Origin: Deltaproteobacteria bacterium
Lineage (GTDB): Bacteria > Bdellovibrionota > FAC87 > UBA2466
DNA: 64,000 nt
Direction: 5' to 3'
NCBI GenBank assembly: GCA_016196825.1
Contig: JACPWY010000019.1
Span: 22,644 to 86,643 of the forward strand
Below the pieces are notes generated by a model that was not told the origin of the DNA, searched no databases, and saw nothing but the letters and a program-made list of their open reading frames with translations. The position numbers and the translations under genes are program-made. This document shows positions 1,940 through 63,998 of this stretch, piece by piece. The first letter of the stretch is position 1, and every line of letters starts with the position of its first letter.

Positions 1940-2795
1940 TTCCATTCTTGTGACGGGATCCGAGGGTTTTATCGGCCGCGCTCTCTGCCGGCGACTTCAG
2001 GCTGAGGAGTTTGAGGTTCACCGCTTTTCGCGATCGCTGGGCCACCAGATTCTCTCGGAAGAGGCCTTTCGCCCCTTTTACGACAAACCCATCGGTCAGG
2101 TCGTTCACTTGGCCGGGGAATCTTTTATTCCGACGAGCTGGGAGACACCTGGGCCGTTTTACGCGATGAATACGCTGGGCACGCAAAGAGTGCTGGATTT
2201 TTGTCGACGGATGGGGTCACGGCTGATCTATTTCTCTTCGTTTGTGTACGGGGCCCCAAAGTATTTGCCCATCGATGAAGAACACCCCATCGCGCCGCTC
2301 AACCCTTACACCCATTCACGCTGGTTGGCGGAGGAGCTTTGCGAGTTTTACTCCCAGCGATTCTCCGTCGATTCGGCGATTCTCAGGCCTTTTAACATTT
2401 ATGGGCCTGGTCAGGACGAGCGGTTTTTAATCTCGCAGTGTGTAGGGCAATGGAAGCGGGGCGAGAGGGTGCAGGTGAAGAGCCTGACCCCGCGGCGGGA
2501 TTATCTTTATCTGGATGATCTGGTGGAAGCGACTCTGCTGGTGATCCGGAATCGCGAACTCTCGGGTGTATTTAATATCGGATCGGGGCAATCCTACTCG
2601 GTGCAAGAGATCCTCACGACCCTGCAGGAGCTGATCGGCCCCACCTTCACCTTTGAATGTGTGAATCAGGAGCGCATCGACGAGGTCCCCGAGACGAGGA
2701 GCAGCAGCCGGCTCCAGACGACGGGGCTTTGGAATCCGCGGGTCTCCTTGCGAGAGGGGCTTACGCGTATTCTTCGTGAAGGGGCGATTCTTTGA
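1932..2795 (+). CDS. NAD-dependent epimerase/dehydratase family protein
   Basis: GTG start overlaps the upstream stop. N-terminus SILVTGSEGFIGRAL is a Rossmann motif, and the YxxSK-like YTHSR region fits the SDR family. Confidence 0.7.
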   Translation: MSNSILVTGSEGFIGRALCRRLQAEEFEVHRFSRSLGHQILSEEAFRPFYDKPIGQVVHLAGESFIPTSWETPGPFYAMNTLGTQRVLDFCRRMGSRLIYFSSFVYGAPKYLPIDEEHPIAPLNPYTHSRWLAEELCEFYSQRFSVDSAILRPFNIYGPGQDERFLISQCVGQWKRGERVQVKSLTPRRDYLYLDDLVEATLLVIRNRELSGVFNIGSGQSYSVQEILTTLQELIGPTFTFECVNQERIDEVPETRSSSRLQTTGLWNPRVSLREGLTRILREGAIL

Positions 2796-4018
2796 AACCG
2801 CGCCTTAAGATTTTTCATATCATCACGCGTCTGAATGTTGGTGGGGCGGCGCTCTACAATATCCTTCTGGCCGATGGACTGGCGGATCTGGGGCACGAGG
2901 TGTGGCTTGTGTACGGAACGGTCGAGTCGTCAGAGAGCGAGATGTTCGATTACATGGACCGGAAGGAGTATCGGTTTGTGAAACGATATATCCCCGAGCT
3001 CATGAGAGAAATTCGATTGGGGAAGGACCTCATCGCTTTCTGGAAACTTTTTGTCCTGATCGCGCATGAGCGGCCCGATGTGATCCATACACACACATCG
3101 AAAGCAGGGCTTCTGGGTCGGCTGGCGGCTTGGCTATTGCGCGTGCCGGTCAAGATTCATTCGTATCATGGGACGGTCTTTCAGGGGTATTTCGGCGGAT
3201 TGGCGAGTCGAGCGATTGGCTCATTCGAAAAATTCCTGGGGCAACGGTGTGAAGCCATCTTTGCCGACACAGAGACCGTCGTGAAGCAGGCGACGAGTCG
3301 AGGTGTTGTGCCCAGCGATCGTGCCTTTTCCATGCCGCTGGGACTGGAGCTTGAGCCCTTCGCGGATCTGGCGGGTTTTCGGGGGCGGTTGCGCCGCCAT
3401 TTGGGGATCGGGAAGAGCACGCCTCTCGTCGGTATTGTGGCCCGTCTCACGCAGATCAAAGACGTCGAGACCTTTTTGCGCTCGGTCCCTGCGATTCTCA
3501 AAGCCCATCCCGAGACCCACATCGCCTCAGTGGGCAATGGTGAGCTTCGGATGCAGCTCGAGGAAGAGGCTCGCCGCATGGGGATTGCGGAGCGAGTCCA
3601 CTTTCTGGGTTTTTGGAGAGAGCTCCGCGAAATTTATGCCGACATCGATCTCTTGGCGCTCTCATCGCTTTCAGAGGGGTGCCCGGTCGCAATTCTCGAG
3701 GCGATGGCTTCCGGACTTGCCGTCGTGTCGACGAGCGTCGGCGGCGTCCCCGATGTTGTTCGGGATGGTAAGAACGGACTTCTGGTGCCTTCGCAAGATT
3801 CTGAGGCGATGGCGCAAGCCGTGAATCGATTGCTCTCGGATCGCGATCTCGCCCGACAAATGGGCGCGGCCGGCCAGCGTCTTGTTCTGGAGAAGTTCAC
3901 CGTTGCAGCGTCAGTCACCGCGACCGAAAGCCACTATGTGCGGCTGGTGGGGGAGAAGGCCCGAATCCCAGTTATGGGTGGTCTGATCGGGGGTAAAACT
4001 CTTTCCCATGATTCCTGA
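2792..4018 (+). CDS. glycosyltransferase, GT4/GT1 (GT-B) family
   Basis: TTG start overlaps the upstream stop (TTGA). N-terminus KIFHIITRLNVGGAALY and C-terminal EGCPVAILEAMASGLAVVSTSVGGVPDVV (E-x7-E like) are typical of GT4 enzymes. Confidence 0.75.
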   Translation: MKPRLKIFHIITRLNVGGAALYNILLADGLADLGHEVWLVYGTVESSESEMFDYMDRKEYRFVKRYIPELMREIRLGKDLIAFWKLFVLIAHERPDVIHTHTSKAGLLGRLAAWLLRVPVKIHSYHGTVFQGYFGGLASRAIGSFEKFLGQRCEAIFADTETVVKQATSRGVVPSDRAFSMPLGLELEPFADLAGFRGRLRRHLGIGKSTPLVGIVARLTQIKDVETFLRSVPAILKAHPETHIASVGNGELRMQLEEEARRMGIAERVHFLGFWRELREIYADIDLLALSSLSEGCPVAILEAMASGLAVVSTSVGGVPDVVRDGKNGLLVPSQDSEAMAQAVNRLLSDRDLARQMGAAGQRLVLEKFTVAASVTATESHYVRLVGEKARIPVMGGLIGGKTLSHDS

Positions 4019-5749: not shown

Positions 5750-6403
5750 ATGATTCTTCTGTCGTATCCCCTCTCCCCAACGACGCCCGCTTACGGCGGT
5801 GGAAAGCGCCCGCAATTTGAACAAGTGCGCTCACTCGAAAAGGGGGACAGTTGCAACATGCTCGAGCTTTTGCTCACCAACCATTCCGGCACCCACATCG
5901 ATATGCCAGCCCACTTTATTAAGAGCGGACCAACGGTGACCCAGGCCCCATTGGATTTTTGGTTTACGACCAACGTGGGCGTGATGGATCTGAAACGGTG
6001 CCCGGCCCCCGGGCAATTGCTCGGATCAGAGGATCTTCCCCTAGCCTCAATCTCTGCTGATTGCGAGGCTCTTCTCCTTAAGACGGGGTGGGGCGGGCAT
6101 AGAGGTGAAAACGTGTATTGGCAAAACCCTCCCGGGTTTCAGCCTGAGCTCGCGGCTGACTTGCGCCAGCAGTGTCCGCGTCTGAGATTCTTCGGATTCG
6201 ATCTCATCTCGCTCTCGAGCTTTGTGAACCGAGAGGAGGGACGAAGGGCCCACCGAGCCTTCTTGGGTGGTGACCAGCCGATTCATCCGATCGAAGACAT
6301 GGACCTTTCGGCACTTCCAGCCCCCATTCACAGCCTTCTCGTTTCTCCGTTTTTCCTCGAAGGGGGGGACGGAGCCCCTGTGACGGTCTGGGCCAATCTC
6401 TAG
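5750..6403 (+). CDS. cyclase family protein (kynurenine-formamidase-like fold)
   Basis: Contains HSGTHIDMPAHF, matching the HxGTHxDxPxH motif of the putative cyclase family. Confidence 0.6.
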   Translation: MILLSYPLSPTTPAYGGGKRPQFEQVRSLEKGDSCNMLELLLTNHSGTHIDMPAHFIKSGPTVTQAPLDFWFTTNVGVMDLKRCPAPGQLLGSEDLPLASISADCEALLLKTGWGGHRGENVYWQNPPGFQPELAADLRQQCPRLRFFGFDLISLSSFVNREEGRRAHRAFLGGDQPIHPIEDMDLSALPAPIHSLLVSPFFLEGGDGAPVTVWANL

Positions 6404-58567: not shown

Positions 58568-58750
58568 CTAATCCCTCAGCTCGATTGAATTTGGCCACTG
58601 GGCGGGTGCTTTTGACCGACCACTTCGTCCTCCGCGTTCGGCTCCTCGACGTGTCCAGGGGGCACGCCTCCGGGGCCTCTCTTGTGCGTCCTCGTGGTCG
58701 GCCAAAATCCCCTCGCCGATTGGACCAAATTCAATCGAGCAGAGGGATTA
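58568..58750. repeat. MITE-like palindromic repeat, copy E (full, divergent arms)
   Basis: Termini ctaatccctcagctcgattgaatttgg / ccaaattcaatcgagcagagggattag (1 mismatch). Core cttcgtcctccgcgttcggctcctcgacgtgtccagggggcacgcctccggggcctctcttgtgcgtcctcg. It contains the stop codon of the downstream gene. Confidence 0.7.
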
Positions 58751-59527
58751 GTTTTGGTGTTCCAGCTGGGTCAGCGGGAAAAGCTGCACAGCCATACGGT
58801 AGACCTCGGTCGGCTCATTTTCGACCTCGGCCTGATCCATCAGCTCGTCCTGAAATCGTCGGATCATCTTTTTCGCACTGGCCAGCGTCTTCGGGTTCAT
58901 CGGGAAGGTGATCCAGGTGAAATCACGTTGCGGAACGGGGATCGTCCCAAGCTTTTCCTGGGCCAAAGTGAGGGTGTCGCCGTGTGACTTCTTGATCCAT
59001 TCGTTGGGTGTGTCTTCAGTTGTGGTCAGAGAGGGTTTCGAGCGACGCCAGCCTCCGCTTTCCAGCTGCTCTAAATAGCCGCTTCGGACGAGTCGCTCCA
59101 TCGCGTCGGCCGCCTTCTTACGCGGAATGCCCAGCCGCTGAGCGATCCAATCTGGGTCGCCCTGAAACGCATTCATCGTCGCTAAATTCAAGATCGCGAA
59201 GTTCTCCCACTCAGTGAGGAGAAAATACTTATCTGCCTCCATTCGGAGGTAGCGATCGGAATTGGGGCGCCGGTTCGAGCGGGCCGCCTTTTTCTCGATG
59301 AGATCCAGCAGCGCGCCCCGTTCGGGTGGGGGGAGTGCCATGCTGTCGGTGAGCTTGCGTGCCAGCTTAGCCGAGACCCGACGTTTACCGAGGAGAACCA
59401 GACTGAGGGTTCCGGCGCTGATGCCAAGCCGCCGGGCGTAACCTCTCACCGACATCCTTGGGTTGCGGCTTCTGAGGGCCGTGAGTTGGGACTGAAGGCT
59501 ACTTCGAATGGCCAGTTGTTCTTCCAT
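58748..59527 (-). CDS. HTH-domain protein resembling the TIGR02147 family
   Basis: SVRGYARRLGISAGTLSLVLLGKRRVS is an HTH. The overall 259-aa architecture resembles what I recall of TIGR02147 proteins. Unverified. Confidence 0.45.
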   Translation of the reverse strand: MEEQLAIRSSLQSQLTALRSRNPRMSVRGYARRLGISAGTLSLVLLGKRRVSAKLARKLTDSMALPPPERGALLDLIEKKAARSNRRPNSDRYLRMEADKYFLLTEWENFAILNLATMNAFQGDPDWIAQRLGIPRKKAADAMERLVRSGYLEQLESGGWRRSKPSLTTTEDTPNEWIKKSHGDTLTLAQEKLGTIPVPQRDFTWITFPMNPKTLASAKKMIRRFQDELMDQAEVENEPTEVYRMAVQLFPLTQLEHQN

Positions 59528-60243: not shown

Positions 60244-60364
60244 CTTCCCAGCGTCTGCGAGGTCGGACCGGTTGTAAAGGATGGGTGCCTTGTCGAAAGC
60301 AAAGCGTCGTGAGAAGCTGAGCACATGCTTCAGATTAGCCGGGCCGAGTAGAAGGAGTTTAGGG

Positions 60365-61345
60365 ATGGGCTCTCTGCTTTGGTTATGTGTAATCTTTCTT
60401 CCGATCATTGCGAGTGCGCGACCGCTTTGGATGGTGGGAGACGACTACATTCTTCACGCCGATTCCAAGGGCCACGAGGTTCACCGATGGTCGGTCGGCG
60501 CGAAGAGCTGGGGCTTTGACCCCCAAGGGTGTCGCCTGTGGGTGCAGGACGGGGAGTCGGTCGCTCTCTTTTTCCCGACGGGAACCCGCCATTCCGTTCC
60601 ATTGAATGTGACTCTGGTTTCCGATCAGATCGCCAATGCCATTTTTCTCCTTGATGGGACAACACTCATTCGTGCTGACGCTAACGGAGTGCTTCAAGAG
60701 CGATCGACCGATCCTGCGTTTGCCCAATTGAAACGGGTGGTCCCGGCCGCTTGCGGCTTCTGGGGAGTTCAGCGTGAGGGGCGCGGGAGTCTTACAATGC
60801 TGGAGATTTCCCACTCGTTGAAGCTCGCCCAAAAGACCGAACTCGCAAAAGGTCATGAACTTTGGGCGCGAGAAAAGCTTCTGCCCGGACTCGATGGAAT
60901 GGTGTGGCTCGGCTATTCGATTACAACTCCATCGGCGATCTACTCACCGCGCGTGGATCTCATCCGCCCGGGCGGCGATATCGTGGCGACGAGTGCCTTT
61001 CAGGGGAAGGGACTCTTTTTCGACGCATGCGTGGCCCCTGATGATCGTCTCGTCGTTTCGCGCGATCTGGCCGGCTCCAGTGAATTCACAGTCCCCATAT
61101 CTTCCTTCGTAGACGCCATTGATCGTGAGGGTCGCACTGAGACTTTATTCGCGGCGGACACCAACCAATTGATCGACGCAGTGGCTTGCTCGACCCAATC
61201 GGTTTTCCTCGCGCAACATTCCATTTTGGGTGGCGGTAACACGCGGCTTTCCCGGATCGACTTTGCGCACCCGAAAACCGAGACGTTTTTGACATCTTTA
61301 CCGGGCACTGTCCGTGCCCTCTATCTGTGTGAAGGAGGTCCCTAA
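60365..61345 (+). CDS. secreted hypothetical protein (possible beta-propeller-like)
   Basis: Signal peptide MGSLLWLCVIFLPIIASA. No other motifs. The start could also be 60281. Confidence 0.4.
   Translation: MGSLLWLCVIFLPIIASARPLWMVGDDYILHADSKGHEVHRWSVGAKSWGFDPQGCRLWVQDGESVALFFPTGTRHSVPLNVTLVSDQIANAIFLLDGTTLIRADANGVLQERSTDPAFAQLKRVVPAACGFWGVQREGRGSLTMLEISHSLKLAQKTELAKGHELWAREKLLPGLDGMVWLGYSITTPSAIYSPRVDLIRPGGDIVATSAFQGKGLFFDACVAPDDRLVVSRDLAGSSEFTVPISSFVDAIDREGRTETLFAADTNQLIDAVACSTQSVFLAQHSILGGGNTRLSRIDFAHPKTETFLTSLPGTVRALYLCEGGP
61331..61338 (+). promoter_or_regulatory. Shine-Dalgarno sequence gaaggagg, 7 nt upstream of ATG 61346
   Basis: gaaggaggtccctaATG is read directly. This is an unusually strong RBS for this window. 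Confidence 0.6.
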
Positions 61346-61489
61346 TGGCAGGAAAGACAGCAAGAAAAAAGGCCGCGAGAAAGGCCAAGATACGACGCGG
61401 TCGCCAACAACAACGCCAGAACCCAAAGCTTGCTCGTAGGCGGCGGGCCAAAAAGTTGATGCGGGTCAAGAAGATGCGCCGAGCTTAGA
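61346..61489 (+). CDS. small highly basic protein (47 aa, about 50% Lys/Arg)
   Basis: MAGKTARKKAARKAKIRRGRQQQRQNPKLARRRRAKKLMRVKKMRRA. It begins 1 nt after the upstream stop and has a strong SD. It is absent from the ORF track only because it is under 60 aa. Confidence 0.45.
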
Positions 61490-61574
61490 GCTAGTCCGGC
61501 TCCAGCCAGGCTGCCAGTTGACCTTTTCGAAATGGATTCCATACTACCGGCATGTGGGACTATTTTAGTCCCCG

Positions 61575-63998
61575 ATGGGAGTGGGTGTCGTGGATATCGG
61601 AAAAAAGGTCATTGAGATTCCGGAGGTCTTGCCGGTTCTTCCGGTGAGAAACACCGTCCTCTTTCCGAATGCGGCCGTGCCGCTGATCGTCGGCCGATTG
61701 AAAAGCATTGAGGCGGTGAAACTAGCCAAACGAGCGGGTGATCTCATCCTTGTGGTGTCGCAAAAGGACAGCTCCAAGGAGGAGCCTGCCGCCAGTGATC
61801 TCTATACAATTGGTGTCGTTTGTCTCATCTCCAAGATGAATGAAATGGAGGGGGGCGGCTATCAACTCGTCGCCAATGGCCTCATCCGCTTTGAGGTGGC
61901 CGAGTATATTGACAAAGTGAGTCACTTTGAGGCTCGGGGTTTTCAGATGGCCGAGGTTATGCCCAGCCAGACCACCCGAGTCGATGCGTTAGCGGAAGAG
62001 CTGCGGCAACTGGGGAAGGCGATTTTGGCTCTCACGTCGATTCCGGCGGCGGAATCGATTTCAAAACTTCTCACACAGCTCACCGATGCTGGGCAGATTG
62101 CGGATCTGTGCAGCACGTTTCTGCACCTCCCTCTGATCACCAAGCAGACCATTTTGGAAACGCGGGATGTCGACCGTCGCCTCCAGATGTTGTTTGAGCA
62201 AATGGTGGCCGAGAAGGAGAAGGTGACACTCCAAAACGAAATTCAGGCGAAAATGATGGAGCGGCTGACCAAGGATCAGCGGGAGCACCTGCTGCGCGAG
62301 CAGATCAAGACGTTGCATGAAGAGCTGGGTGAAGAGCCCCAGACGCCAGACGATTATACGAAAAAGATTGAAGAGGCGGGCCTTTCTCCTGAAGCGAAAA
62401 AGATCGCCAAGGAGGAGCTCGCTCGCCTCAATGGGATTTCGCGGTCCTCGCCGGAGTACCACGTCATACGCACCTACCTCGACTACATGCTGGCACTGCC
62501 ATGGAGTAAGACGAGCGCGCTGGCCACCGAGGCGATCTCTTTGACCAATGCGAAAAAGATATTGGATCATGAGCATTTTGGGATTGAGAAGGTAAAGAAA
62601 CGGATTATCCAGTTCCTCGCAGTCGCTAAGCTCAAGAAAGATCTGAAGGGGCCGATTCTTTGTCTGGTGGGGCCGCCAGGAGTGGGCAAGACCAGTATCG
62701 CACGAGCTGTGTCGCAGGCGCTGGGACGGAAGTTTATGCGCGCGAGCCTGGGCGGTCTGCGCGACGAGGCCGAAATCCGCGGCCATCGCCGAACTTACGT
62801 TGGGGCTCTCCCCGGTCGGATCATCCAGAGTTTGAAACGGGTGGGTGTGAAAGATCCCGTCATTCTCCTGGACGAGATTGATAAGGTAGGCATCGATTTC
62901 CGCGGCGATCCCGCATCCGCTTTGCTCGAGGTCCTGGATCCCGAACAGAATAATACTTTCCTCGACCACTATCTCGACGTGCCGTTCGATCTCTCGAATG
63001 TTTTTTTCATCACGACGGCGAATGTTGTCGAGACGATCCCGCCGGCTTTACGGGATCGAATGGAGATCATCGAGATGACGAGCTATTCGAAGATCGAAAA
63101 GATCGAGATCGCTCGGCGCCATATTCTTCCCAAGGTGATCACGGAGCACGGTCTCACTTCCGAGCAAGTCCGCGTGGCGGATGAGGCCCTCGAGCTTGTG
63201 GTGGATGGCTACACGCGGGAATCAGGCGTGCGAGAGCTCTCCCGAAAGATGGCCGACCTCTGTCGATTCGCGGCTGAACAACTTGCCGCTGAACAGCCGC
63301 CTCTCTTTGTCGAGATCAAGTCGGAGATGATCGAGGCGATCTTGGGTTCACGCCGATTCTACGCCGAGGAGATTGAGAAGCTCCCGCGTCCTGGAGTCGT
63401 GACGGGGCTCGCCTGGACGCCAGTGGGGGGTGAGATCTTGAAGATCGAGGTCACCCGAATGGAGGGGAAAGGGAACCTGATTCTGACTGGGCAGCTCGGT
63501 GATGTGATGAAGGAGTCGGCCCAAATTGCCCTGAGCTTGATCCGAGCGAATATGGGGCGCCTGCCCTATCGTTTTGACTCGTCAGATTTTCACATCCATG
63601 TCCCATCTGGGGCCATCCCCAAAGATGGACCCTCGGCGGGCGTGGCTCTGTTTCTGGCGCTGACCTCTTTAGTCGAGGGACGCCCCGTGAAGCCCGATCT
63701 GGCGCTAACTGGTGAGATCACTCTGCGAGGGGCCGTCCTTCCCGTGGGTGGTATCAAGGAGAAGGTGATCGCGGCTCATCGAGCCGGCATTCGGACGGTG
63801 ATTCTCCCTGAGCGAAACCAGGGTGATCTGAGAGACGTCACCGATGATGTGAAGAAGCAACTCAAGTTCCACTTAGTGAAGGATATTTCTGAAATTCTCA
63901 CGATTGCCGGTTTTGAAGCGCCAGCCGAGCACCCCGAGTTCATGTCCCCATCGCTTCCGCCGTCAGCGGCCACGGCTCACCCAAGCGCGACTAACTAA
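61575..63998 (+). CDS. lon: ATP-dependent Lon protease (LonA)
   Basis: N-terminal [13 protein letters not shown] (Lon N domain). Walker [10 protein letters not shown], Walker B ILLDEIDK and catalytic-Ser region [18 protein letters not shown] are present. 807 aa. Confidence 0.9.

Follow-up and report, generated by a model that had tools for sequence, protein, structure and literature searches.

Annotation routinely overlooks very small proteins, and it took unexplained density in cryo-electron microscopy maps to reveal the mini ribosomal proteins bS22, bL37 and bL38. With about 30 residues, 61% of them Lys or Arg, bS22 forms a bent helix in a pocket of the 16S ribosomal RNA (rRNA) made up of h2, h27, h44 and h45, is almost invariant and often unannotated, and its discoverers expect more such proteins in bacteria (PMC10618245). 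Here we analyse a stretch of 64,000 nucleotides from the genome of a Deltaproteobacteria bacterium (Bdellovibrionota; contig JACPWY010000019.1), referred to throughout as the window, and in it a 47-codon gene for a hyper-basic protein directly upstream of lon, the founder of what we call family A.

Small proteins have also been described next to the Lon protease or in its service. In E. coli, hupB lies downstream of lon, has its own promoter and encodes a 90-residue protein that forms an HU-fold dimer. Lon degrades HupB and RpsB and, with polyphosphate (polyP) as adaptor, free ribosomal proteins (reviewed in PMC9961632). The Caulobacter protein LarA, a heat-shock protein of 89 residues, activates Lon allosterically through a C-terminal degron that is hydrophobic and has His as its last residue (PMC10665427). 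Our literature search returned no description of a small basic protein upstream of lon. As judged from the comparisons below, family A is an undescribed orphan family of one uncultured Bdellovibrionota clade, new as a family within a known kind of hyper-basic mini-proteins.

A conserved basic protein encoded upstream of lon

The gene and its translation start signal lie at the following positions.

61345..61488 (stop codon included), + strand: coding sequence of the 47-residue hyper-basic protein of family A, MAGKTARKKAARKAKIRRGRQQQRQNPKLARRRRAKKLMRVKKMRRA, placed by the open reading frame (ORF) list and by homologues
61331..61338, + strand: Shine-Dalgarno sequence GAAGGAGG, with a spacer of 6 nt to the ATG

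Comparison with its homologues makes it almost certain that this interval is a true protein-coding gene, preceded by a ribosome-binding site of its own. The initial annotation had proposed a 47-codon frame before lon, and both the frame and the quoted peptide are present, with an exact translation that includes the QQQRQ stretch. Its coordinates, 61346-61489, were one base too high, and the ATG, which it placed 1 nt after the upstream stop codon, instead overlaps that stop by one base (TAATG, the upstream ORF ending at 61345). The sequence GAAGGAGG occurs five times within the window and only the copy at 61331-61338 is followed by a start codon 3-12 nt downstream, with a spacer of 6 nt where 7 nt had been given. 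Every family A homologue has a Shine-Dalgarno-like motif 5-8 nt before its ATG.

The peptide (5.7 kDa, isoelectric point of about 12) has 23 Lys or Arg among its 47 residues, that is 48.9% rather than the 53% first reported, lacks Asp and Glu altogether and is AKKA-like over its N-terminal half. In basic content it tops the ranking of the 688 window ORFs of at least 30 residues (0.49, against 0.39 for the second). The gene had also been called unannotated, which is true of the window, where a 60-residue cutoff misses it, but not of its orthologues, which have been called as genes in NCBI, JGI and ENA data and stand there without a name or as 'hypothetical protein'.

Family A homologues occur at 14 other loci, with the frame, start, Shine-Dalgarno sequence and stop kept. 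In a codon-level comparison of six orthologues, the proportion of synonymous differences (pS) is 0.69-0.95, which is saturated, and that of non-synonymous differences (pN) is 0.09-0.34; all indels are whole codons. Between the window and its closest relative, L001, the gene differs at 9, 5 and 23 sites in codon positions 1, 2 and 3, respectively. Identity between loci is 63-89% for the peptide and 56-83% for the N-terminal 300 residues of Lon; the upstream ORFs of the window and L001 share only 35% of their residues. By these measures the peptide is under strong purifying selection at the protein level, and the conservation check that accompanied the initial annotation has thereby been run: the reading frame is kept in orthologous regions, with synonymous sites saturated and non-synonymous sites constrained. 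The nucleotide sequence of family A is not conserved, which rules out a conserved RNA or DNA element as the source of this pattern; Rfam gave zero matches in the region.

A short, low-complexity frame without a database family, overlapped by antisense ORFs in the ORF list of the window, might be suspected of having stayed open by chance, the DNA at the 3' end of the preceding gene being purine-rich. Weighed against the frame, start, Shine-Dalgarno sequence and stop retained elsewhere, and against a coding-like pattern of non-synonymous and synonymous change, such a spurious ORF is extremely improbable.

Distribution and origin of family A

Family A is small by every search that we carried out. 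A word-indexed search of 5.8 billion proteins recovered five homologues of 47-79 residues, and an exhaustive hidden Markov model search of 1.84 billion cluster representatives recovered seven clusters only, all with a core of about 47 residues. The degenerate DNA pattern K-A-K-x3-G-R-Q-Q-Q-R-Q identified ten metagenome loci with family A. Exact-sequence look-ups found neither the window peptide nor the upstream ORF in the collections, and family A was not found in the viral contigs searched.

The closest relative, L001, comes from a metagenome-assembled genome labelled as an uncultured Pseudobdellovibrionaceae, the Lon of which is 81% identical to that of the window. Among 80 lon loci from species-representative genomes, L001 alone carried family A; the screen required a Lys/Arg fraction of at least 0.33 and missed the family B described below, the longest-start ORF diluting the fraction. 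In a neighbour-joining tree of the Lon N-terminal region, the peptide-linked Lons all fall in one clade, the sister of which comprises the peptide-less Bdellovibrionota L002, L003 and L031. Because the peptide-linked Lons are monophyletic, family A had a single origin and is limited to one clade of the Bdellovibrionota, bacteria of predatory type, within which we observed no loss events.

Predicted fold and conservation pattern

AlphaFold2, run on a six-sequence alignment, predicts a helix at residues 2-24, a break at Asn26-Pro27 and a second helix at residues 27-46, with a mean predicted local distance difference test score of 88.9. An alignment of 12 members (A3) has 12 invariant columns (A6, A10, R12, K13, A14, R20, Q21, Q22, Q23, A30, M39 and K43) and 12 nearly invariant ones. 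The length stays within 46-53 residues, indels occur only near the N-terminus, and the C-termini are basic (KKMRRA, KKMRRK or RKQGR). Conservation runs all round helix 1 rather than being confined to one face. Position-specific conservation, a near-fixed length and a helix 1 constrained on all sides favour a specific partner over bulk charge, and on the predicted model we read helix 1 as enclosed by such a partner and not as part of a loose coat on a polyanion. A further candidate, an antimicrobial or cell-penetrating peptide of predator origin, was discarded by argument, as there is no signal peptide and no hydrophobic face.

This pattern bears directly on a role in the nucleoid. The nucleoid of Bdellovibrio is reported to be highly compacted, and its chromatin proteins to be unusual. 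Histone-H1-like and protamine-like proteins are built of basic repeats in variable number and conserve composition rather than position. A nucleoid-associated, DNA-condensing peptide of this kind, compacting the chromosome, would suit the 49% Lys/Arg, the absence of acidic residues, the AKKA-like N-terminal half and the strong-looking expression signals of family A. Neither the window nor any fetched lon locus yielded an HU gene in a tblastn search with E. coli HU-beta. Unusual chromatin proteins, histones among them, are used by Bdellovibrio (PMC10627809), and in other bacteria Lon degrades the nucleoid proteins HupB and YmoA (PMC9961632). Against this stand the invariant GRQQQRQ core and the Ala stripe, a near-fixed length with no expansion or contraction of repeats, and the absence of family A from the other Bdellovibrionota sampled. 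We therefore hold a nucleoid peptide to be quite unlikely; the earlier description as protamine-like fits poorly because conservation in family A is position-specific and not compositional, and the 12 invariant and 12 near-invariant columns over 46-53 residues exclude the family from the histone-H1-like and protamine-like class.

Comparison with known families

Arginine-rich motif (ARM) peptides such as lambda N and HIV Rev are Arg-rich helices with Gln or Asn that recognise structured RNA, and lambda N is a Lon substrate. The family A core RRGRQQQRQ resembles the Rev sequence RRWRERQRQ in a comparison by eye only, and we regard ARM peptides as functional analogues rather than as a homologous family.

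Family A had no match in Pfam and NCBIfam scans (E<=1), PHROGs or PADLOC. The initial annotation had held that the peptide is not bL34 (PF00468), and this is borne out: there is no Pfam or NCBIfam hit, and hhalign gives a probability of 0.4% against the E. coli L34 sequence. Membership of the bS22 family (PF08213, COX24_C, DUF1713) was likewise rejected, with an hhalign probability of 4% over 9 columns in a comparison with actinobacterial sequences verified in the PDB. For HU/IHF (Bac_DNA_binding), Pfam gave no hit to family A.

What family A does share with bS22 (which has the analogues mS38 and eL41) and the other mini ribosomal proteins (bTHX, bL34 and bL37) is size class, composition (50-60% Lys/Arg in those proteins) and high conservation. 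To our knowledge, a fixed position beside lon has no counterpart among them. The bent helix of bS22 is compatible in shape with the helix-break-helix predicted for family A, which is longer, at 47 residues as opposed to about 30-33, and has no detectable homology to it. The mini ribosomal proteins are also lineage-restricted and often escape annotation, and the strong expression signals of family A are a further point of likeness.

LarA resembles family A in being small and lineage-restricted, and is functionally dedicated to Lon. It differs in being alpha-proteobacterial and sigma-32 induced, whereas the family A C-termini are basic and the promoter of the gene is unlike that of lon; family A has neither a hydrophobic C-terminal degron nor a terminal His and was rejected as a LarA-type activator. 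The E. coli lon-hupB pair offers an analogy in gene arrangement, with the gene for a small basic nucleic-acid-binding protein beside lon and under its own promoter, as would be the case for family A. However, hupB is downstream of lon and family A upstream, and the 47-residue, predicted helical peptide has no similarity to HU.

Linkage to lon

The genes flanking the peptide gene in the window are as follows.

61575..63998, + strand: lon (endopeptidase La), matching TIGR00763 with E=8e-267 and the Pfam domains LON_substr_bdg, AAA, Lon_lid and Lon_C
60281..61345, + strand: 354-residue upstream ORF with a signal-peptide-like N-terminus, its stop overlapping the peptide ATG (TAATG)

By alignment with L001, the ATG listed for lon at 61575 is probably too far upstream and its true start may be the GTG at 61590; the true start of the 354-residue ORF is probably internal.

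The family A gene lies directly upstream of lon, on the same strand, at all 13 loci with readable downstream sequence (the window, L001, L081, L084, L085, L088, L090, L091, L092, L093, L095, L096 and L097, of which L091 and L097 are nearly identical), at a distance of roughly 30-370 nt from peptide stop to lon. The flanks change. Homologues of the 354-residue ORF are on the same strand as the peptide gene in the window, L001 and L095, on the opposite strand in L088, L089, L093 and L096, and absent elsewhere; the TAATG overlap with the peptide start is found in the window and L001 and apparently also in L095, as a 4-nt ORF overlap. A Chalcone_3-like gene takes the upstream place in L081, L084 and L085, a gene with a product resembling glutamate racemase (by eye only) does so in L090, and L092 and L097 have other upstream genes; the gene after lon also differs between loci. 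By rough inference, the two outer junctions together have been rearranged at least seven times and the inner peptide-lon junction never, a retention with p ~0.06 under equal breakpoint probability, which is suggestive only.

The link to lon on which the initial annotation had built is therefore conserved, despite the changing flanks, and because it is conserved both a Lon substrate and a nucleoid- or ribosome-like basic peptide are readings to be weighed.

The 354-residue ORF itself gave zero matches in Pfam, NCBIfam, PHROGs and PADLOC. Its sequence and the relatives of the locus suggest a fast-evolving orphan protein of secreted type, the gene for which some relatives have lost and others carry in the opposite orientation to the peptide gene. 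Further upstream in the window, at 58748..59527 on the - strand, is a gene for a regulator with DUF4423 and a helix-turn-helix domain (Pfam E = 4.6e-40), similar to a gene near lon in L002. DUF4423 is a paralogous family expanded in Bdellovibrio and Fibrobacter, in keeping with the placement of the window in Bdellovibrionota.

Promoters and terminators

Between the peptide stop and lon, a promoter scanner placed one further element.

61518..61545, + strand: lon promoter-like element TTGACC-N16-CATACT

An element of the TTGACC...CATACT type was called by the scanner in the window, L093 and L096 and is visible by eye in most other readable loci; it is more divergent in L084 and in L091/L097. In L081 and L085, the lon -10 region reads CCCCATAC, 13 nt after TTGACC, and this spacing presumably also fits a sigma-32 (heat-shock) promoter.

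Five loci (L088, L089, L090, L093 and L096) have a near-consensus promoter of the family A gene itself, TTGC(C/A)A-N16-TATACT, behind an AT-rich tract. The same five have a GC-rich hairpin with A and U tracts after the peptide stop, with folding energies of -17 to -23 kcal/mol and z-scores of -2.8 to -6.1. The hairpin sequences differ between the five lineages, the GC stem and the A/U tracts being kept, and they look like bidirectional terminators. A terminator scanner missed those of L093 and L096, probably because extension of the stem consumes the U-tract, and direct folding showed strong GC stems in both.

The window has neither a terminator nor significant structure in the region between the peptide gene and lon (z = -0.38). 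Here the peptide gene is probably co-transcribed with the 354-residue upstream gene, to which it may be translationally coupled, and read-through from it into lon is possible. Across the family, the arrangement of these signals indicates that the family A gene and lon are separate transcription units.

A gene immediately 5' of lon, on the same strand and, in the window and some other loci, with a short intergenic region and no terminator, could also be a leader peptide or regulatory upstream ORF, its polybasic frame, when translated, controlling the transcription or translation of lon in cis. Nascent chains rich in basic residues can slow the ribosome. We find this very improbable for several reasons: lon has a conserved promoter located beyond the stop codon of the peptide, in five lineages a strong terminator and a further 150-400 nt stand between that stop and lon, and the distance to lon varies widely. 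Together with the non-significant structure score of the window and the negative Rfam search, the promoter and terminators place family A outside the class of transcription-attenuation or translational leaders. Conservation of the amino acid sequence over its full length under saturated synonymous change is, moreover, the signature of a functional protein.

A second basic mini-protein in the sister clade

Sister Bdellovibrionota/Oligoflexia lineages encode a different basic mini-ORF of 47-48 residues, family B, with the consensus MAKRLSVKHRKxRRDKATAYxxGxAPxxHKVAVERSxKAKKKKA…, located as follows.

L003, ~5752..5897, + strand: family B
L002, ~2700..2840, + strand: family B
L031, equivalent position: family B
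L098-L110, 4001..4147 (the position may differ by locus): family B gene

Family B comprises 47 clusters with no name beyond 'hypothetical protein' and no Pfam or NCBIfam match. Homology between the two families was rejected, hhalign giving a probability of 0.4% for A3 against the family B alignment (A5), and they were never seen together in any of the loci examined. In most long loci, a divergently transcribed ABC1-kinase gene flanks family B on one side. The opposite flank varies: the next gene there is a co-oriented lon in L003 and L031, a convergent lon in L107-L110 and, in L098-L100, a Ppx-GppA exopolyphosphatase gene that begins 13 nt after the family B gene; in L002, lon lies on that side at a distance of 3 kb. 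By gene order, family B shows that a small basic ORF near lon can arise from regional synteny in Bdellovibrionota, and the contrast with it shows how strict the pairing of family A with lon is.

Strictness of this kind would fit a dedicated Lon partner, that is, a substrate, adaptor or modulator with a position kept since the two products act together, for example by tethering Lon and its clients on polyP or DNA or by titrating Lon-activating polyanions. Co-oriented adjacency holds at 13 of 13 loci, over Lons down to 53% identity, at least five upstream arrangements and varied genes downstream of lon, with a single origin and no observed loss; family B of the sister clade, which is unrelated, has no such fixed place with respect to lon. 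Single-stranded DNA and local charge regulate Lon allosterically (PMC11719849), polyP is an adaptor for basic substrates (PMC9961632), and the window, with no terminator between the genes, would permit read-through into lon. However, the promoters of the two genes are separate and differ, and a strong terminator stands between the genes in five lineages. No feature of Lon co-varies with the presence of the peptide, nothing notable having appeared in a search of the peptide-linked Lons for a clade-specific acidic patch or insertion, which is a weak test. The peptide lacks a hydrophobic degron, unlike LarA (PMC10665427), and its conservation exceeds that of Lon, an unusual state for an accessory protein that co-evolves with its partner. 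This sequence analysis found no direct evidence for a Lon interaction, and we consider a dedicated Lon partner unlikely.

A proposed role in the ribosome

By analogy with the mini ribosomal proteins, we tentatively favour a reading in which the partner of family A is a specific nucleic-acid structure, most likely rRNA within the ribosome. The protein would be abundant, and its target a specific, slowly evolving polyanionic structure that it binds in the manner of bS22, bTHX, bL34 and eL41. Phosphate contacts would fall to Arg and Lys, a close approach of the backbone would be allowed by the invariant Ala6, Ala10, Ala14 and Gly19, and the invariant Gln21-23 would make specific hydrogen bonds. 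Lon might remove the unbound surplus of so sticky a protein, with both held on the same polyanion (polyP, DNA or RNA). The adjacency to lon could reflect this clearance or, equally, a retained synteny that protects the lon promoter.

The grounds for a ribosomal or RNA-binding role are position-specific conservation above that of Lon, the stripe of small residues, the Gln triplet, the expression signals and the precedent of bS22. Those signals look strong: the Shine-Dalgarno sequence, together with the gene's own promoter and terminator in five lineages, points to high and independent expression.

Several observations weigh against a ribosomal role. Searched against the whole PDB, and with it against all ribosomal proteins of solved structure, a profile of family A gave no meaningful match, and Foldseek returned 0 matches in the PDB for the predicted model, as is expected for a two-helix peptide. 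The failed comparisons with bS22 and bL34 point in the same direction. A ribosomal role alone does not explain the adjacency to lon, and that adjacency has a trivial alternative explanation, in that any rearrangement breaking the DNA between them would damage the lon promoter; the region is also moderately syntenic across the clade in any case. Lon has no evident clade-specific acidic patch or insertion, and the peptide has no hydrophobic or aromatic degron.

Taken more narrowly, that family A is either a lineage-specific ribosomal or ribosome-bound mini-protein or a dedicated, polyanion-bridged client or adaptor of Lon is possible but doubtful. A client or adaptor role would explain its fixed place beside lon since its origin. 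A literature search for a ribosome structure of Bdellovibrio found none.

What can be said from sequence alone is that a 47-residue orphan protein has been held under constraint stronger than that of Lon, and fixed beside lon, across a deep uncultured clade. If it is ribosomal, it would be a lineage-specific ribosome component in a phylum without a ribosome structure; if it is linked to Lon, a universal protease would gain a small partner of a new type; and if it is neither, it would be one more conserved hypothetical small protein. Either of the two novel readings, if true, would mean that a new protein family with a defined partner had been found with nothing but sequence to go on.

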